Program-made: the position numbers and the translations under genes
Shown: piece after piece, positions 3,269-55,104 of the stretch
Layout: each line of letters opens with the position of its first letter
How positions within the stretch are numbered: position 1 is the first letter of the stretch
Notes under the pieces: generated by a model
The model's database searches: none
Told to the model about the DNA's origin: nothing
The model's input: the letters and a program-made list of their open reading frames with translations, nothing else
NCBI GenBank assembly: GCA_040882645.1
Contig: JBBEAX010000085.1
Location: forward strand, 148,801 to 212,800
DNA: 64,000 nucleotides
Origin: Acidimicrobiia bacterium
Lineage (GTDB): Bacteria > Actinomycetota > Acidimicrobiia > Spongiisociales > UBA11373
Direction of reading: 5' to 3'

Positions 3269-3325
3269 CAGAGTCAAGAGTCAAGAGCCAAGGCGAGGGC
3301 TCTTGACCTTGGCTCTTGATTCTTG
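3269..3325. repeat. CAAGAGCCAAG-family palindrome between the nadE start and the histidine kinase stop
   Basis: agagtcaagagtcaagagccaagg cgagggctcttga ccttggctcttgattcttg. It is a 13-bp perfect stem plus nested arms. Confidence 0.6.
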
Positions 3326-4693
3326 CTACTCGAGGAGGACCCGGATGCTCGTCCCTTCGCCGGGAGCGCTCTCCACTTCGGTGGTGCCACCCATCGCTTC
3401 GACCAGCTCGCGAACGATGGACAAACCCAGGCCACTGCCTTCGGGTCGCACCGGTCGATACCGGGTCGCCACGTAGAGGCGCTCGAAGATGTGTGGGACG
3501 TCCGATTGATCCACCCCGGGCCCGGAGTCCGCCACTTCGATCATGAGGCCGGAGGGTCGCCGCTCGAGTCGCAGGGTCACGCTTCCCGCCTCGGGGGTGT
3601 AGCGCAGCGCGTTCTCCAGCAGATTGCCCACCACCTGGGCAATGCGATCGGGGTCGATCTCCACCGCGCCGACATCCGCCAGATCGAAGTCGAGGCTGAC
3701 CCGCGCCGAGTCGGCACGCTCACGAAAGCCTTCGAGCACGCCTTTGAGATGGCCGGCGAGGTCCACCGGTTCGGGACGAAGGCTGAACTCCCGCGCCTCG
3801 ATCCGCGCCAACAGCATCAGGTCTTCGACCAGTCGGCTGAGCCGGGATGCCTCGATCCGCAGCACCGAGGCGACTCGCGCCATCTCCTCCTGGGTGACCC
3901 GTCCTTCCTGGATCGCCTCGGAATACCCGGTGATCGTCGTCAGCGGAGTGCGGAGATCGTGGCCGACAGAGACCAGGAACTCTCGCTCCCGGCGGCGGGA
4001 CGCCTCGAGCTGTTTGGCCATCTCGTTGAACGCCACCGCCACCTGGGCGACCTCGTCATCGCCGTCGACCTCGACTCTGGCGCCGAGATCGCCGCCGGCG
4101 ATGTCACCCGAGGCGTCCCGCAGCGCCTCGAGGCGCCGCCCGGCGAATCGAGCGAACGATCCCGCCAGCACCGCAGCCAGGAGCACCGCCAGCACCATTG
4201 CCCAAGCGAGTCGTAACAGCACCTCGCGCCACGGCACCAGCTCGAGGGTGGTGCCGATCACGACCACCACCGTGCCCCGGTTCCCGGTGGCGAAAGGCTG
4301 GGCGACCACGGCCACCTTCGTCCCGTCGACCGTCGCGTCGAAATGAAGGGGGGCGCCGAGATCCCCAAGATCGGGAACGAGGTCGAGGAGTGCGGTGCCG
4401 TCGCCCAGGATGGTGACCGTCCCACGCGGCCCCACCAGCGCCGCCTCGACATAGTCGTGTCCCCCGATCGACGCGACAACTCCCAGCACCCCGGCAAGGC
4501 TGCGGGCCCCGAGCCCTGGAGTCCGGGCCAATTCGGCCTCGATTATTCGAGCGGTGGCGTTGGCCTGGCGAGCGAACTCGGACCTCACCGACGACTCGAC
4601 CGACCGGTTGATCAAGATGGCACCGGTCAGCCCCCCGATGGTCAACGTCACCAGAGCCACCCCCACCATCCCCCAGAAGAAGCGCCGCTTCAT
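3326..4693 (-). CDS. Two-component sensor histidine kinase (TM-HAMP-HisKA-HATPase)
   Basis: N-terminal TM helix; H-box SVGHDLRTPLTTITGY; G-boxes DSGPGVD and GSGLGLSIV. Confidence 0.85.
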   Translation of the reverse strand: MKRRFFWGMVGVALVTLTIGGLTGAILINRSVESSVRSEFARQANATARIIEAELARTPGLGARSLAGVLGVVASIGGHDYVEAALVGPRGTVTILGDGTALLDLVPDLGDLGAPLHFDATVDGTKVAVVAQPFATGNRGTVVVVIGTTLELVPWREVLLRLAWAMVLAVLLAAVLAGSFARFAGRRLEALRDASGDIAGGDLGARVEVDGDDEVAQVAVAFNEMAKQLEASRRREREFLVSVGHDLRTPLTTITGYSEAIQEGRVTQEEMARVASVLRIEASRLSRLVEDLMLLARIEAREFSLRPEPVDLAGHLKGVLEGFRERADSARVSLDFDLADVGAVEIDPDRIAQVVGNLLENALRYTPEAGSVTLRLERRPSGLMIEVADSGPGVDQSDVPHIFERLYVATRYRPVRPEGSGLGLSIVRELVEAMGGTTEVESAPGEGTSIRVLLE

Positions 4694-4805
4694 CCCAGTC
4701 CCCAGTCTCCAGTCCCCGGGCGGCCATTGGGCCGCCTAAGGCCGGCCTTCAGCCGGCCCAGCCCCCAGCAAGAACGAGCATCGCGGATCCGGTCACCCAC
4801 TCGAT

Positions 4806-4840
4806 TCTTGCGGGTGGCGGGTAGCGGGAGGCGGGAGGCG
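4806..4840. repeat. GCGGG(T/A)AGCGGG-family repeat in the response regulator / histidine kinase spacer
   Basis: ttcttgcgggtggcgggtagcgggaggcgggaggcg. Same family as the copies at 24906, 25241-25483 and 29298. Confidence 0.5.
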
Positions 4841-17534: not shown

Positions 17535-20500
17535 CTAGGTGAGCACAGAATCGGCGCCCAACAGGGCCCGCAGCTCTGCGTATAGAGAGGTCCTCGCCTC
17601 CACCGTGTGCTCAGGGCCGAGCCGGACCACCTTTTCGGCGGGCTTGCCTTCGAGGTGCAAGTAGACCGGCGTCGGCCCCGGATGGTTCGAAAGCACCTCC
17701 TTGAGTCGATTCACCAGGGTCACCGACATCCGCTGAGCGGCGACCCGGAGACGTACGACGCGCTCGGCATCGATGTCGGGCTCGTGAATCTTCTGGGCAA
17801 TGAACTTGAGGCTGTCGCCCCGCTGATCGACCCGCCCGGCCACCACCAGGACCGCGTCGTCACGTACCAACGGCCCGGCCTCGGCGACCGTCCGGGGAAA
17901 CGCCAGCACCTCGACGCTCCCCTCCAGATCCTCCAGCGTGAAATAGAGCATCAACTCACCGGCGCGGGTGTAGCGGCGGGTGACCGCGCTGACGATTCCG
18001 GCGATGCTGGCGACGGTGCCGTCGCGGTGATCCTCGAGTCCGGCGATCGAAGTGGTCGCCAGCGCCTTGAGTGCGGTCTCGATCCCGAACAACGGATGAT
18101 CCGACACGTAGAGGCCGAGCATTTCCTTCTCGAACTGGAGCTTCACCTTCTTGTCCCACTCCATGTCGGGGATATCGATGACCCCGGAGTGGGTCGACGG
18201 CTCCTCCGCCCCGAACAACGAGAACTGCCCCATGTCTTCGGCCCGCCGCCGGGTGACCACCGCTTCGATCATTTGCTCGTGCACCGCCATCAGCCCTTTG
18301 CGGGGGGCGCCGGTGGAATCGAACGCGCCCGCCTTGATCAGTGATTCGATGGTGCGCTTGTTCAGAACCGACAGGTCGACCCGGTCGATGAAGTCCTGGA
18401 ACGATTCATAGAGGCCGTTCTTGCGGCGCTCTTCGGTGATCAACTCGACCACCCCCTCACCGACGTTGCGAATCGCCGACAGGCCGAAGGGCACTGCCCC
18501 GTCCCGGGCCACGAAGTCCGATTCCGACGCGTTCACATCGGGCACGAGCACTCGCACGCCCATCGCCCGGCACTCGTTGAGGTACACGGCCGTCCGGTCC
18601 TTGTCGCGCTTGGCCGAGGTGAGCAGCGCAGCCATGTACTCGGCGGGATAGTGCGCCTTGAGCCACGCGGTCTGATAGGCGATCAGCCCGTAGCCGACCG
18701 CGTGGGGCTTGTTGAAGCCGTATCCGGAGAAATGGGCGATCAGGTCGAAGAGCTCCTTGCCCAGCTCTCGTGGATGTCCCTCCGCGATGCAGCCCTCGAT
18801 GAACTGCTGCTCCTGCTCGGTCATCACCGACGCGATCTTCTTGCCCATCGCCTTGCGCAGGCTGTCCGCCTCCTCCATCGAGTAGCCGGCGATCAGCGCG
18901 GCCACCTGCATGACCTGCTCCTGATACACGATGATCCCGTAGGTGTCGCCGAGCACCTCCGCCAGGGCAGGGTGGAGATGGCCGATGGCGACCCTGCCGT
19001 TCTTTCGATCTGCATAGAGGTTGTGGGTTCCTGCACCCATCGGCCCGGGCCGGTAGAGCGACAGCAGGGCGACGATGTCGTTGAACCGGTCCGGCTGGAG
19101 GTTGCGCATGAGCGACCGCATCCCCGACCCCTCCAACTGAAAGACGCCCATCGAGTCGCCGCGTGAGAGCATCTCGTAGACACTCGGGTCGTCGAGGGGC
19201 ACGCCGTCGATGTCGGGCCGTTCACCCCGCGTTTCCTGAATCAGTTCGAGGCATCGCTCGATCGTCGAGAGGTTTCTCAGCCCGAGGAAGTCCATCTTCA
19301 GCAACCCGAGGCGCTCGATGGCATGCATCTCGAACTGGGTGACGACCTCGGCGTCCTCGCCCTTCTGCTGGATGGGCACGATGTCCGTGAGCGGGTCTGG
19401 GGTGATCACCACCGCAGCAGCATGGATCGAGTCCTGACGGCGCAACCCTTCCAGTCCCAGGGCCGTGTCGATCACCCGACGGGCATCAGGGTCGGAGGCA
19501 TACATCTCGCGCAACCCCGAGGCATTGGCGTGGGAGTCCCGGAGACCAGAGTCGGCGTCGTCGGGCAGATCGTCCAGGCACTGCGCCAGGCTCGCCTCCC
19601 GGCCGAGGATGGGGGGAGGCATCGCCTTGGCGGTGCGGTCGCCCACCGCGTAGGGATAGCCGAGAACCCGGGCGGCGTCGCGCACGGCCTGGCGGCCCTT
19701 GATGGTCGAGAAGGTGATGATCTGGGCGACATGGTCGCTGCCGTATCGCTCCGAGGCGTATCGGATCATCTCGGCGCGGTAGCGCTCGTCGAAGTCCATG
19801 TCGATGTCGGGCATCTCCCGCCGACCGGGGTTGAGGAATCGTTCGAAGATGAGCCCGTACGCGATCGGATCGAGATCGGTGATGCGTAGGCAATAGGAGA
19901 CGATCGACCCCCCCGCTGATCCCCGTCCGGGACCCACCCTGATCCCCTGCTCGCGGGCATGACGTATCAGGTCCCAGACGATCAAGAAGTAGGCGGGGAA
20001 GCCCATATCGTCGATCACCCGCAACTCGTACTCGATCCGGTCACGGATCTCGGTCGTCAGCGAATCCCCGTAGCGGAACCGGGCACCCTCCTCGACCAGG
20101 TCGCGGAGGTAGGCGTTCTCGGTGCGCCCGGCGGGCACCGGGAAGTGCGGCAGGAGGATGTTGCCGAAATCCATCGCGACGTCGGCCCGCTCGACGACGA
20201 GAAGGGTGTTGTCACAGGCTCCAGGAAAATCCTCGTCGGGGAACAGGCCGCGCATCTCGGCGGCGGTCTTCACGTAGTACCCCTCGCCCTGGAACGCGAA
20301 GCGGCCTTCATCACCCATCTGCGCTCCGGTTTGGATGCACAGCAGGGCGTCATGCGCCTCTGCCTCCTCGACCCGGCTGTAGTGGCAGTCGTTGGTGGCA
20401 AGCAGTGGTGCACCCAGTTCCTTGGCGATCGACAGGAGGTCGGGCAGCACCTTCCGCTGCGCCGGCACCCCATGGTCCATCACCTCGACGAAGAAGTTGT

Positions 20501-21047
20501 CCTTGCCGAAAATGTCCTGGTACATCGCCGCAGCGGACACTGCGGCCGTGTAGTCGCGTTGGCCGCCGACATTCCCCTCCTCGGCCGAGGCATCCGGGGC
20601 AAGCAGTTGAGGAACGTGCCCCCCGAGACATCCAGTGGTGGCGATCAAACCCTCCGAGTACTCGCTGAGCAGTTCCCGATCCATCCGTGGCTTGTAATAG
20701 AAGCCCTCGAGATACGCCCGGCTCGCCAGCTTGACCAGGTTGCGGTAGCCCTGCTGGGTCACTGCGAGGAGGGTGATGTGGTACCGGATGTCATCGCGGC
20801 GAGCCGGGCGATCGAACCGCGAACCTGGGGTCAGGTAGGCCTCCATCCCGATCACGGGAGTGACGCCGGCGGCGGTTGCCTGCTGGTAGAAGTCGACGGC
20901 GCCGTACAGGACGCCGTGGTCGGTCAGGCCTACGCCCGGTTGGCCATCCGCCACGACCGCCTTCATCACGTCGGCGACCCGGGCCGCCCCATCGAGCATC
21001 GAGTATTCAGTGTGCAGATGCAGATGGGCGAAGCCGCGTCCCGACAC
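17535..21047 (-). CDS. dnaE: DNA polymerase III alpha subunit (DnaE1)
   Basis: 1170 aa. N-terminal PHP domain (HLHLHTEYSMLDGA), and palm/fingers motifs throughout. Confidence 0.95.
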   Translation of the reverse strand: MSGRGFAHLHLHTEYSMLDGAARVADVMKAVVADGQPGVGLTDHGVLYGAVDFYQQATAAGVTPVIGMEAYLTPGSRFDRPARRDDIRYHITLLAVTQQGYRNLVKLASRAYLEGFYYKPRMDRELLSEYSEGLIATTGCLGGHVPQLLAPDASAEEGNVGGQRDYTAAVSAAAMYQDIFGKDNFFVEVMDHGVPAQRKVLPDLLSIAKELGAPLLATNDCHYSRVEEAEAHDALLCIQTGAQMGDEGRFAFQGEGYYVKTAAEMRGLFPDEDFPGACDNTLLVVERADVAMDFGNILLPHFPVPAGRTENAYLRDLVEEGARFRYGDSLTTEIRDRIEYELRVIDDMGFPAYFLIVWDLIRHAREQGIRVGPGRGSAGGSIVSYCLRITDLDPIAYGLIFERFLNPGRREMPDIDMDFDERYRAEMIRYASERYGSDHVAQIITFSTIKGRQAVRDAARVLGYPYAVGDRTAKAMPPPILGREASLAQCLDDLPDDADSGLRDSHANASGLREMYASDPDARRVIDTALGLEGLRRQDSIHAAAVVITPDPLTDIVPIQQKGEDAEVVTQFEMHAIERLGLLKMDFLGLRNLSTIERCLELIQETRGERPDIDGVPLDDPSVYEMLSRGDSMGVFQLEGSGMRSLMRNLQPDRFNDIVALLSLYRPGPMGAGTHNLYADRKNGRVAIGHLHPALAEVLGDTYGIIVYQEQVMQVAALIAGYSMEEADSLRKAMGKKIASVMTEQEQQFIEGCIAEGHPRELGKELFDLIAHFSGYGFNKPHAVGYGLIAYQTAWLKAHYPAEYMAALLTSAKRDKDRTAVYLNECRAMGVRVLVPDVNASESDFVARDGAVPFGLSAIRNVGEGVVELITEERRKNGLYESFQDFIDRVDLSVLNKRTIESLIKAGAFDSTGAPRKGLMAVHEQMIEAVVTRRRAEDMGQFSLFGAEEPSTHSGVIDIPDMEWDKKVKLQFEKEMLGLYVSDHPLFGIETALKALATTSIAGLEDHRDGTVASIAGIVSAVTRRYTRAGELMLYFTLEDLEGSVEVLAFPRTVAEAGPLVRDDAVLVVAGRVDQRGDSLKFIAQKIHEPDIDAERVVRLRVAAQRMSVTLVNRLKEVLSNHPGPTPVYLHLEGKPAEKVVRLGPEHTVEARTSLYAELRALLGADSVLT

Positions 21048-21090
21048 CGATGCTCCTCAGAGAATTACAGGCGTGTGAGAAGAGGATAGT

Positions 21091-21125
21091 CGGGGGGGGG
21101 GGGGGGCCCCCCCCCCCCCCCCCCC
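21091..21125. repeat. Homopolymer palindrome G15-C20, flanked by tagtc/gacta
   Basis: Read directly: gatagtc G15 C20 gactaacc. It lies 44 nt upstream of the dnaE start, in the divergent intergenic region. Confidence 0.9.
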
Positions 21126-21130
21126 GACTA

Positions 21131-21158
21131 ACCAGTCACCAGTCACCAGTCACCAGCC
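21131..21158. repeat. Heptamer tandem repeat (ACCAGTC)x3 + ACCAGCC
   Basis: accagtcaccagtcaccagtcaccagcc, read directly. Confidence 0.8.
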
Positions 21159-21183
21159 AGAGAAGAGCTTCCCTCTCTTTACA

Positions 21184-22119
21184 ATGCGCGGAGTCAGCGA
21201 ACGGAGTCAACCCATCATGGACCTCGGCTACGACGGCGATCTGTTCCTGCTCGCGTTCGATCATCGGGGCAGCTTCAAGTCGAAGATGTTCGGGATCGAA
21301 GAGGCGAGCGCCGCCGACACCGCCCGGTTGAGTTCAGCGAAACGGCTCGTCTGGGACGGTTTCGAGGCGGCGATGGCCACCGGCCTGCCCGCCGGCGCCG
21401 GCGTGCTGGTCGACGAGGAGATGGGCGCCGACGTGGCGCGGGCGGCTCGCCGGGCAGGAATCCCCTTTGCGATGCCCGTCGAGAAGTCGGGTCAGGATAT
21501 GTTCGACTTCGAGTACGGCGACGACTTTGGAGCCCATATCGAGGAGTTCGATCCCACCTTTGCGAAGGTCCTCGTCCGATGGAACCCCGAGGACGACCCC
21601 GCGACAAAGGAGATCCAGGCCAGCCGCCTCGCCGCGCTCGGCACCTGGCTCCACGATCGAGGGAGGAAGTTCTTGTTCGAACTGCTCGTCCCCGCATCGC
21701 CCCGCCAGATGGAGCTCGTCGCCGGCGACATCGACGCTTACGACCGGCAGATCCGCCCCGCGCTGATGTTGGAGACCATCGACGAGCTTCGCGCAGCCGG
21801 GGTCGAGCCGGACATCTGGAAGATTGAAGGCATCGACGCCTCGGACGACTGCCGCCTCGTCGCCGACCTGGCTCGTGCCGGCGACCGCGACCGGGTGGCG
21901 TGCGTGGTGCTCGGGCGCGGCGCGGACGAGGCGAGGGTCGACCATTGGCTATCCGCCGCAGCACCGGTGGCCGGCTACGCGGGTTTCGCAATTGGCCGTT
22001 CGATCTGGTGGGAGGCCGTAGCCGGATGGCGGGATGAGCGGCTCGCCACCGCCGACGCCGCGTCTCGGATCGGCGAGACCTACCGGCGGTTCATCGACGT
22101 CTATCAGAGCGCCCGCTGA
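21184..22119 (+). CDS. LacD/DUF2090-type class I aldolase-like protein (tagatose/fructose-bisphosphate aldolase family candidate)
   Basis: LLAFDHRGSF resembles the LacD ALAFDQRG motif. Overall aldolase-like length. An alternative start is the ATG at 21217. The stop is 1 nt before the pfk start. Confidence 0.4.
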   Translation: MRGVSERSQPIMDLGYDGDLFLLAFDHRGSFKSKMFGIEEASAADTARLSSAKRLVWDGFEAAMATGLPAGAGVLVDEEMGADVARAARRAGIPFAMPVEKSGQDMFDFEYGDDFGAHIEEFDPTFAKVLVRWNPEDDPATKEIQASRLAALGTWLHDRGRKFLFELLVPASPRQMELVAGDIDAYDRQIRPALMLETIDELRAAGVEPDIWKIEGIDASDDCRLVADLARAGDRDRVACVVLGRGADEARVDHWLSAAAPVAGYAGFAIGRSIWWEAVAGWRDERLATADAASRIGETYRRFIDVYQSAR

Positions 22120-22120
22120 G

Positions 22121-23137
22121 ATGTCCACGGTCGGACTTCTCACCGCCGGAGGGGACTGCCCGGGACTCAACGCAGCGATCCGCGCAGTCGTAGCGGCGGC
22201 GATCGCTGACGGCCATCGCGTAGTCGGCTTCCGCAACGGATGGGCGGGGGCGATGGACGATGACACCATCGACCTCGACCGGGACAGGGTGCGCGGAATC
22301 CTCGGTCGCGGCGGCACGATTCTGGGCACCTCACGACGGGACCCATTTGTTCATGGGAATGGCGCCGCTTCGATCAGTCCCACTCTCGGAAGGCACGGCG
22401 TCGACACCCTCATCGTGATCGGTGGCGATGGCACCCTCCGTACCGCCGCCCGCGTCGACGCGGAGGGGATTCCGGTGATCGGAATCCCCAAGACGATCGA
22501 CAACGACGTGCCCGCCACTGACGTGTCTTTTGGATTCGACACGGCGGTGGAGATCGCAACAGAGGCGATCGATCGGCTCACCACCACCGCCGAAGCGCAC
22601 AACCGCGTACAGCTTGTCGAGGTGATGGGCCGCACCCAGGGATGGATCGCGGTTCACGCTGGCATCGCCGCGGGTGCCGACGTGATCCTGATTCCGGAGT
22701 TCCCGATGCAACTCGAGGAGGCCGCCGAAATCATCCGCGGGCGCCACGAGCGGGGACGCAACTACTCAGTGGTCGTGGTCGCCGAAGGCATCGACAACCC
22801 CCGCGTAGCCCCGCCGCCGAAGGACGCGTACGGCTTCGAGAGGCTCGGTGGCGTGGCTTACGAGGTCGCTCCAATCCTCGAAGCACTCACCGGATTCGAG
22901 ACCCGGGTCACCGTGCTCGGCCATCTTCAACGCGGGGGGAAGCCGACTGCCCGCGATCGGGTGCTGGCAAGCCGGCTCGGGGCGGCGGCGATCGAGGCGA
23001 TGGCGCGGGGCGACCGCGGCATGATGATGGCGGTGCGCGGCAACGCGATCGTCCCCGTTCCGCTGACGGACCTCGGTGACGAGCCGCGCGGGGTGCCTCG
23101 TGAGTTGTACGAGGTCGCCCGCACCTTCTTCGGGTGA
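22121..23137 (+). CDS. pfk: ATP- or PPi-dependent 6-phosphofructokinase
   Basis: GLLTAGGDCPGLNAAIR, IGGDGT and GIPKTIDND motifs. Confidence 0.85.
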   Translation: MSTVGLLTAGGDCPGLNAAIRAVVAAAIADGHRVVGFRNGWAGAMDDDTIDLDRDRVRGILGRGGTILGTSRRDPFVHGNGAASISPTLGRHGVDTLIVIGGDGTLRTAARVDAEGIPVIGIPKTIDNDVPATDVSFGFDTAVEIATEAIDRLTTTAEAHNRVQLVEVMGRTQGWIAVHAGIAAGADVILIPEFPMQLEEAAEIIRGRHERGRNYSVVVVAEGIDNPRVAPPPKDAYGFERLGGVAYEVAPILEALTGFETRVTVLGHLQRGGKPTARDRVLASRLGAAAIEAMARGDRGMMMAVRGNAIVPVPLTDLGDEPRGVPRELYEVARTFFG

Positions 23138-23154
23138 TTCAGAGCGCTCGACGG

Positions 23155-24036
23155 TCAACCGAGGCCGTCGATCACTTCCTGGAGGTCGTCGGGCAACGGG
23201 CTCTCCACTTCCACCCGGGCTCCTGTGACGGGATGGTCGAAGGCCAGTCCGGCCGCGTGAAGAAACACCCGGGGAGCCCCCCGCCCGACCCCATACACCG
23301 CGTCTCCCACCACGGGTAGGCCGATCGCCCCGAGGTGGACCCGGATTTGGTGGGTCCGGCCCGTCTCGAGCCGAAGTTCGAGCAGTGTGTGCTCTGCCCA
23401 GGTGCCGAGGGTGCGGTAGTGGGTGCGCGCTGGACGTCCTTCGGGATCGACCTTCATCTCCATCGGCCGTCCCCGATCGCGGCCGAGCGGAGCATCGATG
23501 GTGCCCGTGGGGATGGCGGGGCGGCCCGCCACTAGCGCCAGATAGCGCCGTTCGATGGCGTGGGCGTGGATGGCCGCCCGCAGGCCTTCATATGCCGGCC
23601 AGTCGAGAGCAACGACCAGCAGGCCCGATGTCCCCCGATCGAGTCGGTGCACCAACCCCCATCGATCCTCGGCGCCGACGCCCCGAACCCGGGGCCAGCG
23701 ATGGAGGATCCCCGCCGCGAGAGTTCCGGTTCGGTTGCCGGCGCCCGGATGGGTGACGACCCCGCTCGGCTTGTCGATGACCGCCAGATGTGGATCCTCA
23801 TACCGCACCGCGAAGTCGACGACTTCCGGTTCCAGACTCGGGGCGGGAGCAGGCGGCTTGAATTCGACGACGCTGCCGGCCGCGAGCCGGTGCTTCGAGG
23901 TGGCAGGCGCCCCATCCACCACCACTTCCCCGAGGTCTACGAGCGACCTCGCCTGTGCCCGGCTCAGCCCCCCCAGCCGGGCGACTATCAAGTCGGCCCG
24001 CTCGCCGTCCAGCGCGGCCGGCACCTCGAACCTCAT
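23155..24036 (-). CDS. rluD: RluA-family 23S rRNA pseudouridine synthase (RluD-like)
   Basis: S4 domain, then the catalytic HRLDRGTSGLLVVA motif. Start taken at MRFEV (24036), which overlaps the lspA stop. The ORF track's 472-aa form is an in-frame read-through of the lspA region. Confidence 0.85.
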   Translation of the reverse strand: MRFEVPAALDGERADLIVARLGGLSRAQARSLVDLGEVVVDGAPATSKHRLAAGSVVEFKPPAPAPSLEPEVVDFAVRYEDPHLAVIDKPSGVVTHPGAGNRTGTLAAGILHRWPRVRGVGAEDRWGLVHRLDRGTSGLLVVALDWPAYEGLRAAIHAHAIERRYLALVAGRPAIPTGTIDAPLGRDRGRPMEMKVDPEGRPARTHYRTLGTWAEHTLLELRLETGRTHQIRVHLGAIGLPVVGDAVYGVGRGAPRVFLHAAGLAFDHPVTGARVEVESPLPDDLQEVIDGLG

Positions 24037-24512
24037 TCGCGCTTGAACGCAAGGAAGAGCGCCAGAAGCGCGCCGATCGTGATCGCCGAGTCGGCGGCAT
24101 TGAATGTTGGGAAGAAGGAAAAGGAGATGAAGTCCACCACGCCACCGTCGAGAAGGCCGTCGCCCCGGAAGACTCGATCGAGCAGGTTCCCCATGGCGCC
24201 ACCCAGTACCAGGCCGAGCGCAGCGGCCTCCGAGCGGTGAGGCACCTTGTGAACCACGATCACGATGAAGACGACGATCGCAACCGCCATCAGTGCGATG
24301 ATCGAACCGGCCCCCTGGAGCAGGTTGAAGGCCGCGCCCGTGTTCGTCACGTAATTCAACTGCAGGAAGCCGTCGATCAAGACGATCGGGTTTCCCGGCA
24401 GCACCGCGGACGCCCACCACTTGGTGAGTTGGTCGAGGACGACCACCGCCCCGGCGGCGACCAGCGCCGTGACTCTGGGGGTCAGCGCCGGCTGGCCGAG
24501 CAGTCGACGCAC
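24033..24512 (-). CDS. lspA: Lipoprotein signal peptidase II
   Basis: VLDQLTKWWA...NTGAAFNL...FNAADSAITIGA pattern of LspA. Start assigned to the GTG at 24512, overlapping the dksA-like gene's 3' end by 30 nt. Confidence 0.75.
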   Translation of the reverse strand: MRRLLGQPALTPRVTALVAAGAVVVLDQLTKWWASAVLPGNPIVLIDGFLQLNYVTNTGAAFNLLQGAGSIIALMAVAIVVFIVIVVHKVPHRSEAAALGLVLGGAMGNLLDRVFRGDGLLDGGVVDFISFSFFPTFNAADSAITIGALLALFLAFKRE

Positions 24513-24857
24513 AGTTTGGTGTAGGGGAGGGCGTCGAGCCTTGCCACCGGGATCGCAGAGCCGCACTCGGCACAGCGGCCGTAGGTGCCGTCCTCGATGC
24601 GAGTCACGGCCTCTTCGATCTTCGAGAGGATGTCCTGAGCGTTCTGCCACAGCGACAGCTCTTTTTCCATCTCGAAGGCCAAAGAGCCGCCTTCCGCGGT
24701 GTTCGGATCGGGGCTGCGATCCGAAGAAGTCTCGGTGAGCCTCACCTCTTCCCGCTCGGCCTCGATGTCACGAACCATCTCACCAAGGCGCGTTTGTTCT
24801 TCCTCGAGCCGTTTGCGGAAACGTTCCAGTGTGGATGGGGCGAGATCGCGTGCCATG
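24482..24857 (-). CDS. DksA/TraR-family C4 zinc-finger protein
   Basis: C-terminal CAECGSAIPVARLDALPYTKLCVDC (C4 zinc finger) preceded by a coiled-coil. Start at MARDL. Confidence 0.7.
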
Positions 24858-24905
24858 AGCCCTCCCTGCGAGCGAGCGACGATACCACGGGCGGCCAACA
24901 CCGGG

Positions 24906-24934
24906 CGCTACCCGCTGCCCGCTACCGGCAAGAA
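24906..24934. repeat. GCGGG(T/C)AGCGGG-family repeat copy (forward orientation)
   Basis: cgctacccgctgcccgctaccggcaagaa. Confidence 0.5.
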
Positions 24935-24944
24935 GGGGCGAACG

Positions 24945-25226
24945 TCAGCCGATCCCCAGCGACGATCGAGCGCTGGCGAGCGAAACACCCTCGATCAGCA
25001 CCCGTTTGCGCCTGGTGGTCGCGCCCCTCAGCAGTACGGCCCGATGCCCGGGAAAGCGGGCCTCCAACAACCTGACCACTGCCTGGTTGGCCCGCCCCCC
25101 TTCGGGCGGCGCCGCCACCCGGATACGAAGGGCATCGCCGTGCTCACCGACGATCTCGTCCTTGCTCGCCCCCGGCACCACCCAGACCGTGACCACCGTT
25201 CCTTCAGGATGATCCGATACCACCAA
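24945..25226 (-). CDS. DUF167 (YggU/UPF0235) family protein
   Basis: 93 aa, VTVWVVPGASKDEIVG...LRIRVAAPPEGGRANQAVVRLLA pattern. Confidence 0.7.
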   Translation of the reverse strand: MVVSDHPEGTVVTVWVVPGASKDEIVGEHGDALRIRVAAPPEGGRANQAVVRLLEARFPGHRAVLLRGATTRRKRVLIEGVSLASARSSLGIG

Positions 25227-25240
25227 GTCGACCCCCAGAT

Positions 25241-25483
25241 CGCTACCCGCTGCCCGCTACCCGCTACCGGCAACAGGGCGCTACCCGCTGCCCGCTACCC
25301 GCCACCGGTAAGAACGACGTACGGTTTCGTACGAGTCTGCCCATTCTCGCTGAATGCTGAAGGCCGATTCTGCCTGGCCTCTCATGATCCACCGGATCAG
25401 CGCCCACTGTCTTGCGGGAGGCGGGTAGCGGGAGGCGGGGCGGAGCTTTCTTGCGGGAAGCGGGCAGCGGGTAGCCGGTAGCG
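25241..25483. repeat. Composite inverted array: two forward plus two reverse copies of the ~32-nt GCGGGTAGCGGG-family repeat around a ~95-bp spacer
   Basis: Copies at 25241-25275, 25279-25314, 25411-25441 (reverse complement) and 25449-25483 (reverse complement). Confidence 0.6.
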
Positions 25484-25559
25484 AAGAGCCCGACGCCCGC
25501 TCCTGTTATTCTTAGGTCAAGGCGTCGAAGAGGACGCCATCGGGTCGGGACGGGCTCAG

Positions 25560-25760
25560 CGAGCCGGCGAATGGTGTGAGGCCGGCGCCCCGGATTCGAT
25601 GGACATCACCTCTGAGCCGTGGGAAGAACGGGTCACCCCGCTTAGAACCCACCGACCTCCCCACGAGAAGGGGGCCATGAGCGGCCGTCTCCAGGCGGCA
25701 AGCCGGGTGGTACCGCGGGCGTCGAGCTCGTCCCGGCGGCACGACCGCCGACCGAGGACG
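25560..25760 (+). promoter_or_regulatory. T-box leader (isoleucine) controlling ileS
   Basis: Conserved T-box sequence GGGUGGUACCGCGG at 25705-25718. Candidate specifier AUC followed by A at 25605-25608. The start codon follows a GAGGA Shine-Dalgarno immediately downstream. ileS T-boxes are established in Actinobacteria. Confidence 0.55.
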
Positions 25761-25762
25761 AC

Positions 25763-28700
25763 ATGGCCGACTCATCGTTCGACCGGGCACCTTCGGATGT
25801 CTCGTTCCCCGCGCTCGAAGAGCAGATCCTCGACCTGTGGGATCGGATCGACGCGTTCCACGAATCGGTGCGGATGCGGCCCGAGGACAACGAGTTCACC
25901 TTCTACGACGGCCCGCCCTTCCCCACCGGGAGTCCGCACTACGGGAACCTCCTCGCCGGCGTCCTCAAGGACATCGTTCCCCGCTACTGGACGATGCGGG
26001 GGCACCGCGTCGTCAGACGTTTCGGGTGGGACACCCACGGTCTGCCGATCGAGCTGGAGGTCCAGGACGAGCTCGACCTCTCCGGGCCGTCGGACATCCT
26101 CGAATACGGCGTCGCCCGCTTCAACGAGGCCTGTCGCGTGCGGGTGATGGAGAACACCGAGGTGTGGGAGTCGGTCACGCGCCGTATTGGTCGCTGGGTC
26201 GACTTCGAGGATGACTACAAGACGATGGACACCGACTTCATGGAGTCGGTGTGGTGGGTGTTCAAGCGGCTGTGGGACGAGGGACTCGTCTACAAGGCGT
26301 TCAAGGTGCTGCCCTACTCGTGGGGCGCAGCGACACCACTCTCCAACTTCGAGGTCAACCTCGGCGAGTACCGCGACGTCGAAGACCCGTCCATCACGGT
26401 GCGACTCGCCGTGACCGAGGGCACCGGTCCGGTGCAACCCGGCGACCTGCTGCTGGTATGGACCACCACGCCGTGGACGATGCCGTCGAACCTTGGAGTG
26501 GCCGTCGGCCGCGACATCACCTACATGCGGATCGATGAGCCACTCGACGGCGAACCGGGGCGCCATTGGATCGCCGCCGATCGAGTGTCGGCGTACTGGC
26601 CGGAGGGCACCACGGGAACCGCGACGGCATCGGGTGAAGAGCTTCTGGGGACGCGCTACCGGCCCGCCTTCGACTATTTCGCCTCCCTCGCCGGTGAGGG
26701 CGCTTTCGTGGTCATTCCCAGCCCCGAGGTGTCCGTCGAGGAGGGCACCGGCCTGGTCCACATGGCGCCCGCCTTCGGCGAGGCCGACCTGGCGGCCTTC
26801 ACCGACGCCCGCCTCGACCACCTGCTGGTCGACCCGGTCGACGCCGAGGGGCGATTCACCGCGGCGGTCCCCGAGGTGGCCGGGGTGAGGGTGAAGGACG
26901 CCGACCCGGCCTTGATCAAGCTGCTCCGGGAACGCGGTGCACTGGCCCGCAGCGAGCGGATCACCCACTCGTATCCCTATTGCTGGCGCACCCACACCCC
27001 TCTCATATACAAGGCGATCCCCACCTGGTTCGTGGCCGTCGAGCGGATCCGCGACCGCATGGTGGAACTCAACGAGACCATCCACTGGGTGCCCGACCAC
27101 GTCGGGTCGAAGCGGTTCGGCAACTGGCTCGAACAGGCGCGCGACTGGGCGGTGTCCCGCAACCGGTTCTGGGGCTCATGTATCCCCGTGTGGGAGTGCG
27201 ACGGATGCGACGAGACCGTGTGCGTCGGCAGCATCGAAGAGTTGCGCGAGCGAAGCGGAGTCCTCGTCGACGACCTTCACAAGCACATCGTCGACGAGGT
27301 GACCTTCGGATGCAGTGCCTGCTCCGGGACGATGCACCGGGTCCCCGAGGTGCTCGACGTCTGGTTCGAGTCCGGGGCGATGCCATACGGCCAGAACCAT
27401 TACCCGTTCGAGAACAAGGAACGATTCGAGCGAGGATTCCCTGCCCACTACATCGCCGAGGGCCTCGATCAGACGCGGGGATGGTTCTACACGCTCGTGG
27501 TCCATGCGACCGCACTGTTCGATTCAGTCCCCTTCCGCAATTGCGTGGTCAATGGCCTGATCCTCGCCGAGGACGGACACAAGATGTCCAAGAGCCTCAA
27601 GAACTACCCGGACCCCCTGGTGCTGGTGGATTCGACCGGGGCCGACGCACTACGGGCGTACCTGATCAACTCCCCGGTGGTTCGGGCCGAGCCCCTGCGA
27701 TTCTCCGAGCGGGGGGTCCGCGAGGTGGTCCGCACCGTGATGCTCCCCTATTGGAATGCCTATTCGTTCTTCACCACCTACGCCGCGGCCGAGCGGCTCA
27801 CCGTTGATGACCTTGCCTCCGCCCCCGCCCCCGCCGACCGGCCCGAGATCGACCGGTGGATCCTCTCTGTGCTGCAGAGCCTGGTGAATCGGGTCAACAC
27901 GGAGATGGAGGGCTATTACCTGTACAACGTCATCCCCCCACTGATCGACTTCGTCGACGACCTGACCAATTGGTACATCCGCCGCTCGCGCCGGCGCTTC
28001 TGGACCGTCCGGGGTACCGACGCCGCCGACAGCCTGGCTGCCTTCGCCACCCTCTATGAAGTGCTCGTCACCTTTTCAAAGCTCATGGCCCCGGTCCTGC
28101 CGTTTGTGACCGAAGCGATGTACCAGGAGCTCGTCGTCGCCCGCAGGGCGCGGGCGGAGGACGGCCCCGCCAGCGTCCACCATGAGGACTATCCGGAATC
28201 GGACGACTCGCTGATCGACCGGCGCCTCGAGGCGGACATGGCCGCGGTGCGCGAGACGGTCGGCCTCGGGAGAGGGCTTCGGGTGACGGAGGGGATCAGG
28301 ATTCGCCAGCCCCTCGCCACCCTGACCGTCGTCAGCCACGACAGTGAGGTTCGTCAGGCAGTCGACCGGCACCGCGAGCTGGTTGCCGACGAACTCAACG
28401 TCAAGTCAGTGGTCACCTCGTCCGACGAGGGAAGCCTGGCGGTGGTCACCGCCAAGCCGAACTACCGCACCCTCGGCCCGCGCTTTGGGGCACGGATGGC
28501 CGAAGCAGCCGCGGCCATCGAGCAGCTCGCTCCTGCTGCCCTCAGCCGCATTCTCGAAGGGAAGACGATCGAGATACTCGGCGCCGAGGTGGGGACGGCC
28601 GACGTCGTGGTGGCCAGGGCGCCGAACCCCGGAGTGGCCGTGGCGAGTGGCGAGCGCCTCTCGGTCGCACTCGACACCGCCATCACCGCCGAACTCGCTC

Positions 28701-29297: not shown

Positions 29298-29340
29298 TGT
29301 TGCTGGCAGCGGGAAGCGGGAAGCGGGTAGCCGGCAGCGC
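29298..29340. repeat. GCGGGTAGCGGG-family repeat between convergent ileS and yggT
   Basis: ttctgttgctggcagcgggaagcgggaagcgggtagccggcagcgc. Confidence 0.5.
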
Positions 29341-48496: not shown

Positions 48497-48600
48497 TCCC
48501 ATGCGGATCTGGCTGGGGCCGGAGCTGGAGCCGGAGCCGGATTGGCTGGGGCTGGAGCCGGAGCCGGGGCTTGGGGGCGGCTCAGACCGCCGCCCCCAAG
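48497..48600. repeat. ~33-nt tandem direct repeat x2 followed by a perfect 11-bp hairpin (cttgggggcgg/ccgcccccaag)
   Basis: ggctggggccggagctggagccggagccgga / ttggctggggctggagccggagccgggg, then cttgggggcggctcagaccgcccccaag. Confidence 0.5.
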
Positions 48601-49082
48601 TACGCGTGCCATGAGGGATGCGGCGGGGACCCGAGGCCAACCAGTAGCCAGCCGTGCTCGCGGGGGGCACCAGGGGCGCCCACCAGGCTCATCCCTGCCT
48701 CGTCGGGGGTCCGATCACCCTTACGGGTGTTGCACCGGCGGCAGGCGGCGACGACGTTCTCCCAGGTATGGGTGCCGCCCCGGGACCGGGGCATCACATG
48801 GTCGAGGTTCTCGGCGCCGTGACCGCAGTACTGGCAGGTGTGGAGATCGCGGGCAAACACCGCCCGGCGATTCAACGGGACCCTCCGACGGTACGGCACC
48901 CGCACGTACCTACGCAGCCGTATGACGGTGGGCACCTCCACCTCGAGGTGCTCCGACCGCCACACCTGGTTCTGCGAGTGGATCAGTTCGGCCTTCTCTC
49001 GCACCACCAGGACGACGGCGCGCCGCGCCGACACCACCGAAAGTGGCTCGAATGACGCGTTCAGGACGAGCGCTTGAGCCAT
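48582..49082 (-). CDS. HNH endonuclease
   Basis: CQYCGH...LDHVMPRSRGGTHTWENVVAACRRCNTRKG HNH motif. The stop codon lies inside the hairpin. Confidence 0.8.
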   Translation of the reverse strand: MAQALVLNASFEPLSVVSARRAVVLVVREKAELIHSQNQVWRSEHLEVEVPTVIRLRRYVRVPYRRRVPLNRRAVFARDLHTCQYCGHGAENLDHVMPRSRGGTHTWENVVAACRRCNTRKGDRTPDEAGMSLVGAPGAPREHGWLLVGLGSPPHPSWHAYLGAAV

Positions 49083-52583: not shown

Positions 52584-54943
52584 CATGGGTGGCAGGGGTC
52601 GCCGGCATCTCTCTCGCGCTGGCGCGGGTGGCGCGCCTGCTTCTTCCCTCATCGAGCGGGCTCCCCTGGGAGATCCTGCTCATCGCCGCCGCGGTACTGG
52701 GGGCAACCATCTCCTGGGCGGCGGCGGCATACCGGGTGCCGGGGGCGTTGCTCGCCATCCTCCACCTCGCCGCGACAACCGTAACGGTCGTCCGGGTGGC
52801 GGTTCCGGACACGACCTGGTTCATCTTCCCGACCCGCGCCTCCTTCACCGCGCTGGGCGCCGAGCTCACGTTTGCCCGCGATGTGATTCGGGCGGGCATC
52901 GCTCCGGTCCTTCCGCTCGCCGGGCTCGTCGCCATCCTTGCCATCGTGTTCTGGGCGATGGGCGCCCTCCTCGCGTGGGGCCTGCTCACCGGCCGCCCCT
53001 ACGTCGCGGTCCTGACCCCTCTCGTCGTGTATCTCGAGTTCGCCGTTCTCGACAGCCGCATCGGCGGCTTGTGGACCACGGGATACATGGCGTTGATCGG
53101 CTTCACCCTCATCGCGGTGACAATCGACCATCGGCGCGAAGGCACCGGCCTGTTGAAATCGGCCAGGCGGGGAGGACGCCTGCGACGAACGATCCCGGTC
53201 GTCGGGCTGACGACGCTGCTCGCCACGGTGCTGGTAGCGAGCAATGCCAGCCAGGCGATAGCCGACCTCGTGCCCCGGAGAGGATTCCTCGACTGGCAGG
53301 GCACCAGCAAGCTGTCCGGCGATTTCTTCGGCAGCATCGCATACAACCCGTTTGTCGGCATCCAGCAGAGCCTCGTCACCCAGACGAATGTGCCGGTGTT
53401 CGTGTTCGAGCCTGAGCCGGGGCACCCGGCCGACCAGGTGTACTGGCGGCTGCTGACACTCGACGCCTTCGACGGAGCTCAATGGCACGCGGGCAACTCC
53501 CGCCTCGAGGGATTCGACGAGGTGGCGACCTTCGAGGATCAGGGCGCCGCCTTTGCCGGACCCCGGTCGAGTTTCCGGGCCACGGTGACGATCCTCGCCC
53601 TGCAGATGGATTGGCTACCGGCGCCATACGCCCCGGTGTCTCTCGACATCGACGAGGGCTCGGTACGCAGCGGAATCCGCTTGCGTCCGGGTGACGGTTC
53701 GATCCACTTCGACGCTCTGACCTTCCGGGGGATGGCTTACACCATTGAATCGGAGATCCCGCAGCCGAGTATCGACATCCTCAGCCGGCGTGACGATGGC
53801 ACCCCTTCGACGATCTTCCGTTCGGCGATCGAGACCGGAGACTTCGGTCTCGTCGGCGTCGACCTGCCGACCATCGTGAACCGCTCACTGCCCGACGCCG
53901 AGGCGCATCTCGAACTCCCCGACGAACTCGACCCGCGCATCCAACTGCTCGCCGAGTCGCAGATCGAAGGGCTCGAGACCGACTACGAACGAGCACTGTC
54001 GCTCGAGAACTTCTTTCGGAGGCCGGGGAAATTCGTCTACACCCTCGAGGTCCCGCCCGGTCACGGTGCCGACACCCTCGCCAATTGGCTGCTCGAGCCG
54101 GACAGCGCCAACTACCGCGCCGGCTACTGCGAGCAGTTCGCCACGAGCATGGCCGTCATGGCGCGCACCATCGGGATCCCCAGCCGCGTCGTCCTCGGTT
54201 TCACCCCGGGGAACACACTCGAGGACGGGCGCCTCGTGATCCGCGATCGCAACGCCCATGCCTGGGTAGAGCTGTGGATGCCGAGCCAGGGCTGGGTGAA
54301 GTTCGATCCGACGCCTCGCACCGACGGGATCAACCCTTCCGCCGCCGAGGATCTTCCGTTCCGGGCGGCCGACCATCTCGACGCCGCCCAGGCCGAAACC
54401 CGTCCGCGCCCGGAACCCGGGGGGACCCCTGTCACGACGGTTCCCACCACCGTCCCGTTCTCCCCCGACGGGGGCCTGAGCGGAGAGGTGCCGAGTGACC
54501 TGCCGGCACGAACCCGCTCGCTGCTCATCCCGTTCCTGGTTCTTGGCTTCGCCCTACTGCTGGTGCCGTCGATCAAGTTCGTGCGCCGCCGCCGCCGGAT
54601 CAGGCGGCTCGAACGCGGTGACGTCTCGGGTGCCTGGCAGGAGATCGTCGACCAGCTGGCCGATCTCGGCACCGAATTGCACCGCTCGGAAACACCCGCC
54701 GAGCTGGCGGCCCAGGTCGGCCCGGTGCTCGCCCCGCTTGCCGACGTGTATTCGGAGTCGGCTTACGGTCCCGGCGCGCCGCTGACCAGCCGCCGGATCG
54801 CCACCGCCTCCCGCTCCCTGACGGAGACAGAGGCCGAACTTGCCCGAGAGAACTCGATCTTCAAACGAATCGGCGCGAGGTATCGGGTGAAGTCGCTGCT
54901 GCGGAGGCACACCACACAATCCGGGCTGGGCACCAAGCGATAA
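52544..54943 (+). CDS. Transglutaminase-like membrane protein (TgpA-type: DUF3488 + transglutaminase core)
   Basis: N-terminal polytopic membrane domain. Catalytic core CEQFATSMAVMAR...HAWVELW...FDPT (Cys-His-Asp). A C-terminal TM helix. Confidence 0.8.
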   Translation: MAGGDGGDMGYRLTWVAGVAGISLALARVARLLLPSSSGLPWEILLIAAAVLGATISWAAAAYRVPGALLAILHLAATTVTVVRVAVPDTTWFIFPTRASFTALGAELTFARDVIRAGIAPVLPLAGLVAILAIVFWAMGALLAWGLLTGRPYVAVLTPLVVYLEFAVLDSRIGGLWTTGYMALIGFTLIAVTIDHRREGTGLLKSARRGGRLRRTIPVVGLTTLLATVLVASNASQAIADLVPRRGFLDWQGTSKLSGDFFGSIAYNPFVGIQQSLVTQTNVPVFVFEPEPGHPADQVYWRLLTLDAFDGAQWHAGNSRLEGFDEVATFEDQGAAFAGPRSSFRATVTILALQMDWLPAPYAPVSLDIDEGSVRSGIRLRPGDGSIHFDALTFRGMAYTIESEIPQPSIDILSRRDDGTPSTIFRSAIETGDFGLVGVDLPTIVNRSLPDAEAHLELPDELDPRIQLLAESQIEGLETDYERALSLENFFRRPGKFVYTLEVPPGHGADTLANWLLEPDSANYRAGYCEQFATSMAVMARTIGIPSRVVLGFTPGNTLEDGRLVIRDRNAHAWVELWMPSQGWVKFDPTPRTDGINPSAAEDLPFRAADHLDAAQAETRPRPEPGGTPVTTVPTTVPFSPDGGLSGEVPSDLPARTRSLLIPFLVLGFALLLVPSIKFVRRRRRIRRLERGDVSGAWQEIVDQLADLGTELHRSETPAELAAQVGPVLAPLADVYSESAYGPGAPLTSRRIATASRSLTETEAELARENSIFKRIGARYRVKSLLRRHTTQSGLGTKR

Positions 54944-55035
54944 GCAATACGCGATACGCGATACGACGGAACCCGACTGAGCATCACCGGACAATCACCG
55001 ACTCTGTCGTATTGCGAATCGCGTATTGCGAATCG

Positions 55036-55104
55036 CGGACGAACGCAACGGGGCTGGCCGACCGAAGGTCGGCCCAAGGCGGCTAAAGACGGCCGAAGGC
55101 CGTC
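55036..55104. repeat. Pair of GC-rich GAA-loop mini-hairpins (ggccgacc-gaa-ggtcggcc; gacggcc-gaa-ggccgtc) between convergent genes
   Basis: Read directly. An imperfect ATACGCGATACG palindrome precedes them at 54949-55030. Confidence 0.5.

Follow-up and report, generated by a model that had tools for sequence, protein, structure and literature searches.

Long runs of G or C in promoter DNA are known from phase-variable genes, as in the poly-C tracts of Bordetella fim and the poly-G/C tracts of Neisseria porA and opc. We have analyzed a reminiscent arrangement in a 64,000-nucleotide stretch of DNA (hereafter the window) from an Acidimicrobiia bacterium (assembly GCA_040882645.1, contig JBBEAX010000085.1, positions 148,801 to 212,800). 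Here, 15 G residues are followed immediately by 19 C residues in the intergenic region between dnaE, which encodes the alpha subunit of DNA polymerase III, and a divergently oriented gene pair encoding a DUF2090 protein and 6-phosphofructokinase (pfk). Like the Bordetella and Neisseria tracts, this one lies in promoter DNA, consists of G or C runs of considerable length (13-19 nt), and is inherently prone to slippage. Unlike them, it combines two complementary runs, placed back to back, into a palindrome, and the palindrome of related genomes is not homopolymeric. Moreover, the tract does not appear to lie between a -35 and a -10 element, and the genes concerned are housekeeping genes.

The closest experimentally supported analogue is the exsBA intergenic region of Vibrio parahaemolyticus, in which a repressive cruciform is attenuated by HlyU (PMC10325908). 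In both cases, a perfect or near-perfect inverted repeat in an intergenic control region overlaps or abuts a promoter, and supercoiling is the expected driver of an extrusion that is, or would be, repressive. At our locus, however, the stem is composed entirely of G:C pairs and is homopolymeric in this genome, the gene is dnaE, and extrusion would be kinetically harder from a GC center. GC-rich intergenic stem-loops are also familiar as intrinsic or "I-shaped" actinobacterial terminators and as repetitive extragenic palindromic (REP) elements. In contrast to these, the palindrome described here has no U-tract, lies between two gene starts, and is single-copy in the window and in the related loci that were fetched for comparison.

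The tract is accompanied by a short array of the heptamer ACCAGTC. Heptameric intergenic simple sequence repeats (SSRs) have been described in Xanthomonas (GGGAATC) and Nostoc (GGGGAYT) (PMC4692102), and TTTTGAT heptads in the ctxAB promoter of V. cholerae are the subject of a preprint. The (ACCAGTC)n array is likewise an intergenic tandem heptamer upstream of a promoter. It differs in occurring in the Acidimicrobiia, which belong to a different phylum, in a genome that contains many different repeat units, often as inverted pairs of arrays, and the ACCAGTC unit itself implies neither a binding factor nor a G-quadruplex (G4) motif. Thus, each component belongs to an already known kind of element, be it the promoter-proximal palindrome, the homopolymeric promoter tract, or the intergenic heptamer SSR. 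What is new is the combination, in which a conserved and compensated palindrome at the predicted dnaE promoter appears to have been turned into a back-to-back G/C homopolymer.

A palindrome of two homopolymer runs and its counterparts in related genomes

An initial sequence-only reading had described the tract as G15-C20. The run of 15 G residues was correct, and the C run is 19 nt long. The tract is bordered by exact inverted copies of a pentamer, TAGTC (21087-21091) and GACTA (21126-21130), as had been noticed, and complementarity extends further, to the 8-nt flanks GGATAGTC and GACTAACC with a single A/A mismatch. The best fold consists of a 20-bp perfect stem closed by a CCCC loop, plus two outer pairs, which agrees with the hairpin of about 20 bp proposed at the outset. 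As DNA, this fold has a computed energy of -31.2 kcal/mol (z = -6.1 relative to dinucleotide shuffles, with 0 of 200 shuffles as good). As RNA, it is very stable on either strand (-54 to -56 kcal/mol). The palindrome is therefore a perfect inverted repeat with a short loop and a stem of sufficient length for extrusion, which is the form looked for in promoter-associated cruciform regulators.

The window has a GC content of 67.5%, its next-longest homopolymer is 7 nt, and no homopolymer run of at least 10 nt is present in 955 kb of related loci. The 20-bp stem is also the longest perfect hairpin in the window, the runner-up being 12 bp. For these reasons the tract is far beyond chance, and the early judgment that it is improbable even at high GC holds. 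No copies of TAGTC-(GC-rich)-GACTA were found outside the orthologous site in the 64-kb window or in the fetched loci. A dispersed palindrome of the REP type or of the miniature inverted-repeat transposable element (MITE) type was accordingly rejected, the only copies in these sequences being orthologous ones.

A perfect GC-rich palindrome occupies exactly the same position in four other lineages, which are represented by the related contigs L181-L183, L116, L081, and L082 (allele sequences are listed in the table). The palindromes of L181, L182, and L183 are identical and come from three separate metagenomes. A degenerate version is present in L179, and members of the L119 group have heptamers at this site, followed by a different hairpin. 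The five alleles, including that of the window, have different cores, each of which is exactly self-complementary. When stem pairs are counted from the outer end, comparison of the outer 16 pairs of L116 and L181 with those of L081 shows five two-sided changes (pairs 3, 11, 12, 14, and 15) and at most one one-sided change (0-1). Within the same pairs, the window and L116 are distinguished by one two-sided change (pair 14) and one one-sided change. Further inward, there is another two-sided change at pair 18, and the window has five extra G:C pairs. Pair 3 is unpaired in the window, whose left arm is L116-like at this position and whose right arm is L081-like. Differences between alleles are thus two-sided, or compensatory, with almost no pair broken, which is the pattern of conserved pairing. 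All stems are of the Watson-Crick type, with no G-T intermediates and no strand-specific G-T/G-U pairs.

The outer stem TAGTCGGGGG...CCCCCGACTA is common to the window, L181, and L116, and only the 13-nt core of the L181 and L116 alleles is replaced in the window, by G10-CCCC-C10. Furthermore, runs of G5 to G8 and of C5 already line the stems of relatives. Because of these shared features, we conclude from the aligned alleles that the G15-C19 tract is the extreme member of a series of perfect GC-rich palindromes. The tract had initially been treated as a free-standing oddity, and it appears instead to be a homopolymerized allele of a conserved palindrome. The proposal that it is a genuine structure-forming tract survives in outline, given the perfect GC-rich palindromes of relatives at this site. 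The Z-DNA component of that proposal was discarded, as the tract has no purine-pyrimidine alternation.

Genuine tract or assembly artifact

We consider it likely that the G15-C19 tract is real. Neither run reaches 21 nt, the usual minimum k in assembly, and therefore every k-mer across the tract must have come from reads that also contained a flank or the G-to-C junction. By this reasoning, the left flank with G15 and a C, as well as a G with C19 and the right flank, must occur in reads. GC stems of 15-18 bp at this very site have been assembled through in five short-read assemblies (L081, L116, and L181-L183), and the C7 and G7 runs of the window are not associated with frameshifts. The gapless agreement of a neighboring part of the window with a conspecific contig (99.83% identity; see below) likewise speaks for the quality of the assembly. 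The tract is also separated from both window ends by more than 21 kb and is flanked by ordinary sequence, rather than being embedded in junk near a contig end.

Tracts with at least 12 G residues followed by at least 12 C residues are found in 33 of 2.9 million IMG/VR contigs (L083-L115). Most are found within 150 nt of where a contig ends, many are surrounded by polyA/polyG junk, and none of the 33 has complementary flanks longer than 3 nt. These are plainly read-tail junk that has survived at contig tips. A few internal and clean cases are also in this set, namely L083 (G12C17), L093 (G32C28), L100 (G20C15), and L105 (G14C13). The window tract resembles the contig-tip junk in its G-then-C composition and run lengths, but it is internal, and its flanks are clean, orthologous to those of relatives, and complementary to each other (five exact bases, or seven of eight). 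In addition, it replaces the core of a palindrome at the site where relatives carry theirs.

The chief alternative is that only the core is artificial. A real palindrome like that of L181 or L116 might have had its interior left unread, and junk-tailed reads (a G run, then a C run) at the two contig tips that face the gap might have been fused as TAGTC-G15-C19-GACTA. In favor of this scenario, the IMG/VR tracts sit mostly at tips near junk and have run lengths of 12-30, similar to 15 and 19, and the bases retained on both sides of the window tract are exactly those of relatives. Moreover, a contig of a conspecific metagenome-assembled genome (MAG; GCA_040904265.1, contig L180), which is 99.83% identical to positions 21532-26752 of the window with 0 gaps, does not include this region. 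However, the scenario needs a coverage gap at a hairpin whose counterparts were passed by five short-read assemblies, and it needs rare G-to-C junk at both tips simultaneously. It must also contend with runs below k, which place both flank-run junctions in reads, with flanks that are free of junk, and with the fact that artifact-type tracts lack complementary flanks. On balance, we regard a core-only artifact as unlikely.

The more drastic suggestion made from the sequence alone, that the dnaE and pfk sides were mis-joined or folded back on each other, draws on the general fact that such GnCm tracts are often artifacts, and it is hardly credible given that fold-back complementarity stops after 8 nt and that related contigs from independent assemblies have the same neighbors and base-level orthologous flanks up to the tract. 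Specifically, the order arsA-like / dnaE (minus strand) / DUF2090 / pfk / rluA / lspA / dksA / ileS is identical in L119-L121 and L181 and is partly present in the shorter contigs L081, L116, L082, and L179. The left flank is identical to that of L181 at 44 of 44 positions, right up to TAGTC, and the right flank aligns with those of L081 and L116, so that collinearity with related genomes holds on both sides. Because of this agreement, the comparison of sequences refutes a mis-join. The sequence-only reading had itself proposed the synteny of dnaE and the aldolase-pfk pair as a check, and it had held that normal intergenic sequence or different neighbors in relatives would speak against biology. 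Instead, the relatives share the neighbors and carry palindromes.

Possible roles of the palindrome in the dnaE/DUF2090-pfk control region

The explanation that we favor, with moderate confidence and on comparative evidence, is that the tract is genuine and represents the homopolymerized form of a perfect GC-rich palindrome maintained by one clade of Acidimicrobiia at a fixed position of the divergent dnaE/DUF2090-pfk control region, probably in a DNA-level role. The placement of the two predicted promoters is important for this view. The dnaE leader contains a 5-4-5 inverted repeat with the consensus TTACA-N4-TGTAR (scanned as Y-Y-ACA-N4-TGT-R-R-Y) that occurs in 27 Acidimicrobiia loci (L001-L059 examined), 15-45 nt 5' of the dnaE start, whatever the upstream neighbor. 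Since its wobble and mismatch patterns favor neither strand, the motif is probably a DNA-level site and a candidate operator for a dnaE regulator. An RNA hairpin at the same motif (TYACA-N4-TGTAR) was judged unlikely because G-U versus C-A patterns favor opposite strands in different lineages.

A TANNNT hexamer is located 3-11 nt 5' of the leader motif in 15 of 15 leaders of the "ACAC type", and in close relatives this hexamer reads TATCCT, TAACCT, or TATCGT. The TATCCT of the window is therefore a plausible dnaE -10 element, in which case the palindrome covers about -8 to -57 and the tract about -13 to -52. No recognizable dnaE -35 element was found. On the other side, TTACAAT recurs about 30 nt 5' of where DUF2090 starts in eight orthologous regions, in spite of complete reshuffling of the DNA that separates it from the palindrome, and TACAAT is the likely -10 element of the DUF2090-pfk operon. 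The tract is thus upstream of both predicted -10 boxes, and the palindrome is about 50 bp upstream of the one for DUF2090.

No TANNNT hexamer was found upstream of the palindrome on either strand. An intrinsic terminator is not predicted, there is no T-run on either side, and the palindrome lies between two start codons. A search of Rfam 15 gave no family at gathering score, only generic miRNA-hairpin matches of at most 36 bits against cut-offs of at least 42 bits. Because of these results and the lack of strand-specific G-T pairs, we favor an untranscribed, DNA-level element. An intrinsic terminator was rejected on the same grounds of a missing U-tract, the lack of any prediction, and the position between two gene starts.

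It is reasonable to speculate on how such an element could have arisen and how it might act. A few arm-symmetric C:G to G:C changes would have turned the core into all-G and all-C arms, and slippage expansion of the G5 and C5 runs already present in relatives would have lengthened these arms. The unequal lengths of 15 and 19 nt might then have resulted from slippage that affected each run independently. The palindrome would not be transcribed and, given its overlap with the dnaE -10 hexamer, would act at the level of DNA. When both divergent promoters fire, negative supercoils would build up between them and could drive extrusion of the palindrome as a hairpin or cruciform. Extrusion would take the dnaE -10 element out of duplex B-DNA and absorb supercoils, which would damp dnaE transcription. 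Alternatively, the G runs, with G15 on one strand and G19 on the other, may fold as G4 or i-motif structures. Slippage would make the length of the stem adjustable. We therefore propose, with low confidence, that dnaE transcription might be modulated by a structure of slippage-prone length.

Several points weigh against a genuine and functional palindrome. To our knowledge, a bacterial palindrome made of G and C homopolymers placed back to back has not been described before, which lowers the prior for one. Cruciform extrusion from an all-GC center is kinetically unfavorable. A palindrome 5' of dnaE was not found in most more distant Acidimicrobiia. The 33 IMG/VR contigs demonstrate that GnCm junk exists at the read level in public assemblies, and the conspecific contig L180 starts at 21532, 400 nt to the right of the tract, and neither confirms nor contradicts it. 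Lastly, template-switch mutation can yield perfect stems with double changes in the absence of selection (PMC8794818).

This last point leads to a serious, if improbable, alternative in which the palindrome is a non-functional by-product. Slippage and template-switch mutation would create and re-perfect palindromes, and the element would be tolerated rather than used. The strong enrichment of period-7 arrays both in the window, which has 14 of them, and in its closest relatives, the fast turnover of intergenic regions, and the perfect Watson-Crick stems without G-T intermediates, which template switching predicts, are all consistent with this possibility. Nevertheless, lineages whose DUF2090 proteins are 81-93% identical have retained the palindrome site together with the outer 10 bp of each arm, even though all sequence on its right side has been reshuffled between them, and none of the other divergent regions of the window has a comparable palindrome.

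A contingency switch, in which slippage of the G or C run toggles dnaE and/or DUF2090-pfk on and off, must also be considered. The runs exceed the length of about 8 nt or more that is looked for in contingency loci and are well within the hypermutable range expected from general knowledge of slippage. Their unequal lengths suggest independent slippage, and the tract is near the predicted dnaE promoter. However, dnaE is essential, and its neighbors are housekeeping genes of the glycolysis type, unlike the surface or restriction genes of typical contingency loci. There is no recognizable -35 element whose spacing the tract would alter, and relatives keep a palindrome that is not homopolymeric, such that pairing rather than a slippery run is conserved. 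Heptamer arrays are also identical between two conspecific MAGs, among six L119-type assemblies, and among three L181-type assemblies. Such a switch, with classical ON/OFF phase variation, is therefore quite improbable.

A more elaborate version of this idea is a self-tuning switch. Slippage in either run might shift the length of the stem and loop and, hence, the supercoiling threshold at which a hairpin, cruciform, or G4/i-motif forms, thereby providing a heritable and reversible rheostat for dnaE, and perhaps also for the divergent glycolytic operon, that evolved from a conserved, non-slippery palindrome. This proposal is highly speculative, and we consider it very doubtful.

About equally doubtful is a transcribed RNA hairpin, which might serve as a 5' stabilizer or attenuator of the dnaE mRNA or as an "I-shaped" actinobacterial terminator without a U-tract between the divergent units. 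The stability of the RNA fold on either strand fits this suggestion, and a CCUC sequence located just 3' on the dnaE strand could, as read from the sequence, pair with GAGG of the Shine-Dalgarno (SD) element. Against it stand the conserved -10-like hexamers downstream on both sides with no TANNNT upstream on either strand, the lack of a U-tract, a predicted terminator, an Rfam match, and strand-specific G-U pairs, and the position of the palindrome between two gene starts.

Neighboring genes, heptamer arrays, and significance of the locus

The divergent arrangement noted from the sequence alone, with dnaE on the minus strand and DUF2090 and pfk on the plus strand, is supported by the protein families listed in the table. 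In relatives, DnaE is also 1170 aa long. The best DnaE relatives among GTDB genomes are from Acidimicrobiia MAGs at no more than 76% identity, and in many more distant GTDB MAGs, dnaE likewise has pfk or DUF2090 as its divergent neighbor. Searches for exact copies of the DUF2090 protein of the window (from two alternative starts) and of DnaE gave no match, and a 100% identical DUF2090 protein, NCBI MEX1208818.1 of an Acidimicrobiia MAG, was identified through cluster membership. When the N-terminus of DnaE was used to look for homologues, close relatives were not among the results. Scanning of metagenome DNA for a conserved 22-mer of the dnaE leader gave 0 matches, and a protein-guided metagenome scan gave only relatives at no more than 71% identity, outside the clade. 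The pfk start at 22121 was adopted by comparison with relatives, in which a PFK gene of 338 aa comes immediately after DUF2090.

Features of the dnaE/DUF2090-pfk intergenic region, orthologous palindrome alleles, and repeat arrays in the window
Feature	Position	Strand	Remarks
G15 run	21092-21106	+	5' arm of stem
C19 run	21107-21125	+	CCCC loop and 15-nt 3' arm
Whole palindrome, GGaTAGTC-G15-CCCC-C15-GACTAaCC	21084-21133	strandless	50 nt; orthologous perfect palindromes in L181-L183, L116, L081, L082
Allele of L181, L182, L183			GGATAGTC-GGGGGCGGCC-tgc-GGCCGCCCCC-GACTATC; 17-bp stem
Allele of L116			GGATAGTC-GGGGGCGGGC-gag-GCCCGCCCCC-GACTATCC; 18-bp stem
Allele of L081			GGTTAGTC-GGCAGGCG-(8 nt)-CGCCTGCC-GACTAACC; 16-bp stem
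Allele of L082			G8CGGCC...GGCCGC5
Degenerate version in L179			TTAGTCGGGGGGCG...
Heptamer array, (ACCAGTC)x3 + ACCAGCC	21131-21158	+	about -34 to -61 of the predicted DUF2090 promoter
SD of dnaE, GAGGAG	21053-21058	-	read from sequence; conserved in L081, L116, L181, L179
Inverted-repeat motif of dnaE leader, TCACAcgccTGTAAT (TCACACGCCTGTAAT)	21064-21078	-	candidate operator
Predicted dnaE -10 hexamer, TATCCT	21083-21088	-	TANNNT type; five of six bases inside the outer stem of the palindrome
Predicted -10 of DUF2090-pfk operon, TACAAT	21180-21185	+	TTACAAT at the same place in L081, L082, L116, L118, L119, L179, L181
dnaE (DNA polymerase III alpha, 1170 aa)	17535-21047	-	GTG start at 21047; Pfam PHP, DNA_pol3_alpha, finger, HHH_6, OB domains
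DUF2090 gene (IolC-C-terminal/aldolase-like)	21217-22119	+	Pfam PF09863, E = 3.8e-35; SD GGAG at 21203-21206
pfk (6-phosphofructokinase)	22121-23137	+	Pfam PFK, E = 8e-104, scored on the longer open reading frame (ORF) 22034-23137
Other heptamer arrays	903-1070, 3270-3330, 4694-4717, 4810-4840, 24906-24926, 25241-25306, 25414-25483, 29308-29339, 54937-55037		
GCGGGAG/GCGGGTA family sites	4805-4840, 24906-24935, 25241-25310, 25410-25483, 29300-29340		

The heptamers adjacent to the palindrome had initially been given as (ACCAGTC)x4. Tandem heptamers are indeed present, and Tandem Repeats Finder (TRF) reports 3.7 copies at 21131-21156. Three units are exact, and the fourth is the variant ACCAGCC, which ends at 21158. 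The array is orthologous to the (CCAGCCW)5 arrays of L081 and L116, and all of these end in CACCAGCCAGA. Thus, the position of the array is conserved between relatives, while copy number and unit sequence vary. An 8-nt direct repeat, GAGAAGAG, at 21077-21084 and 21160-21167 brackets the palindrome and the heptamer array. A target-site duplication was rejected as its origin, since relatives share the left copy without the right one, and the repeat is probably due to chance.

Tandem heptamer arrays with many different units are abundant in the intergenic DNA of the window, which contains 14 arrays of at least three copies. They often form inverted pairs around a spacer, as in (AGAGTCA)n...(TCTTGAY)n at 3270-3330 and GCGATAC...CGTATTG at 54937-55037. 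This enrichment is strongest in the clade of the window itself, with 7 arrays in 10.9 kb of L081 versus 65 in 1.02 Mb of all related loci. Text searches of the literature found no published description of such abundance for Acidimicrobiia. One dispersed heptamer family, GCGGGAG/GCGGGTA, typically ends in CTTGC or GCAAG(AA) and occurs in both orientations in several intergenic regions, and it is possibly a mobile or recombining SSR family.

The two conspecific MAGs (L180 versus window positions 21532-26752) do not differ in the copy number of their arrays and hairpins, and neither do the six L119-type (L119-L124) or the three L181-type (L181-L183) independent assemblies, which represent two related species. 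Because copy number agrees in both conspecific and related-species assemblies, arrays of 3-9 copies are not hypervariable at the population level. Arrays at this locus can nevertheless expand greatly, given that the orthologous promoter-upstream region of L178 (positions 1-95; DUF2090 81% identical) has at least 13 copies of CCTTCCG that run off the contig start. Elsewhere in the window, a 12-bp perfect hairpin, CTTGGGGGCGGC-tcagacc-GCCGCCCCCAAG (48570-48600), straddles the putative start of the minus-strand ORF 48582-49082. It directly follows a GCCGGA hexamer array (48504-48567), and stems lined with G5/C5 runs recur in the genome.

One practical implication of this analysis is that finding a GnCm tract within a contig does not by itself indicate a mis-join, and that true mis-joins can be told apart from local oddities by examining related genomes. 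A genuine tract would provide a natural case of a back-to-back G/C homopolymer palindrome in a bacterial chromosome, located on the predicted promoter of an essential replication gene. It would also mark where a traceable evolutionary series of palindromes with perfect compensation ends. The locus would then offer a system in which to ask whether promoter-proximal cruciform or hairpin elements regulate housekeeping genes, and whether perfect stems are kept by selection or by template-switch mutation.

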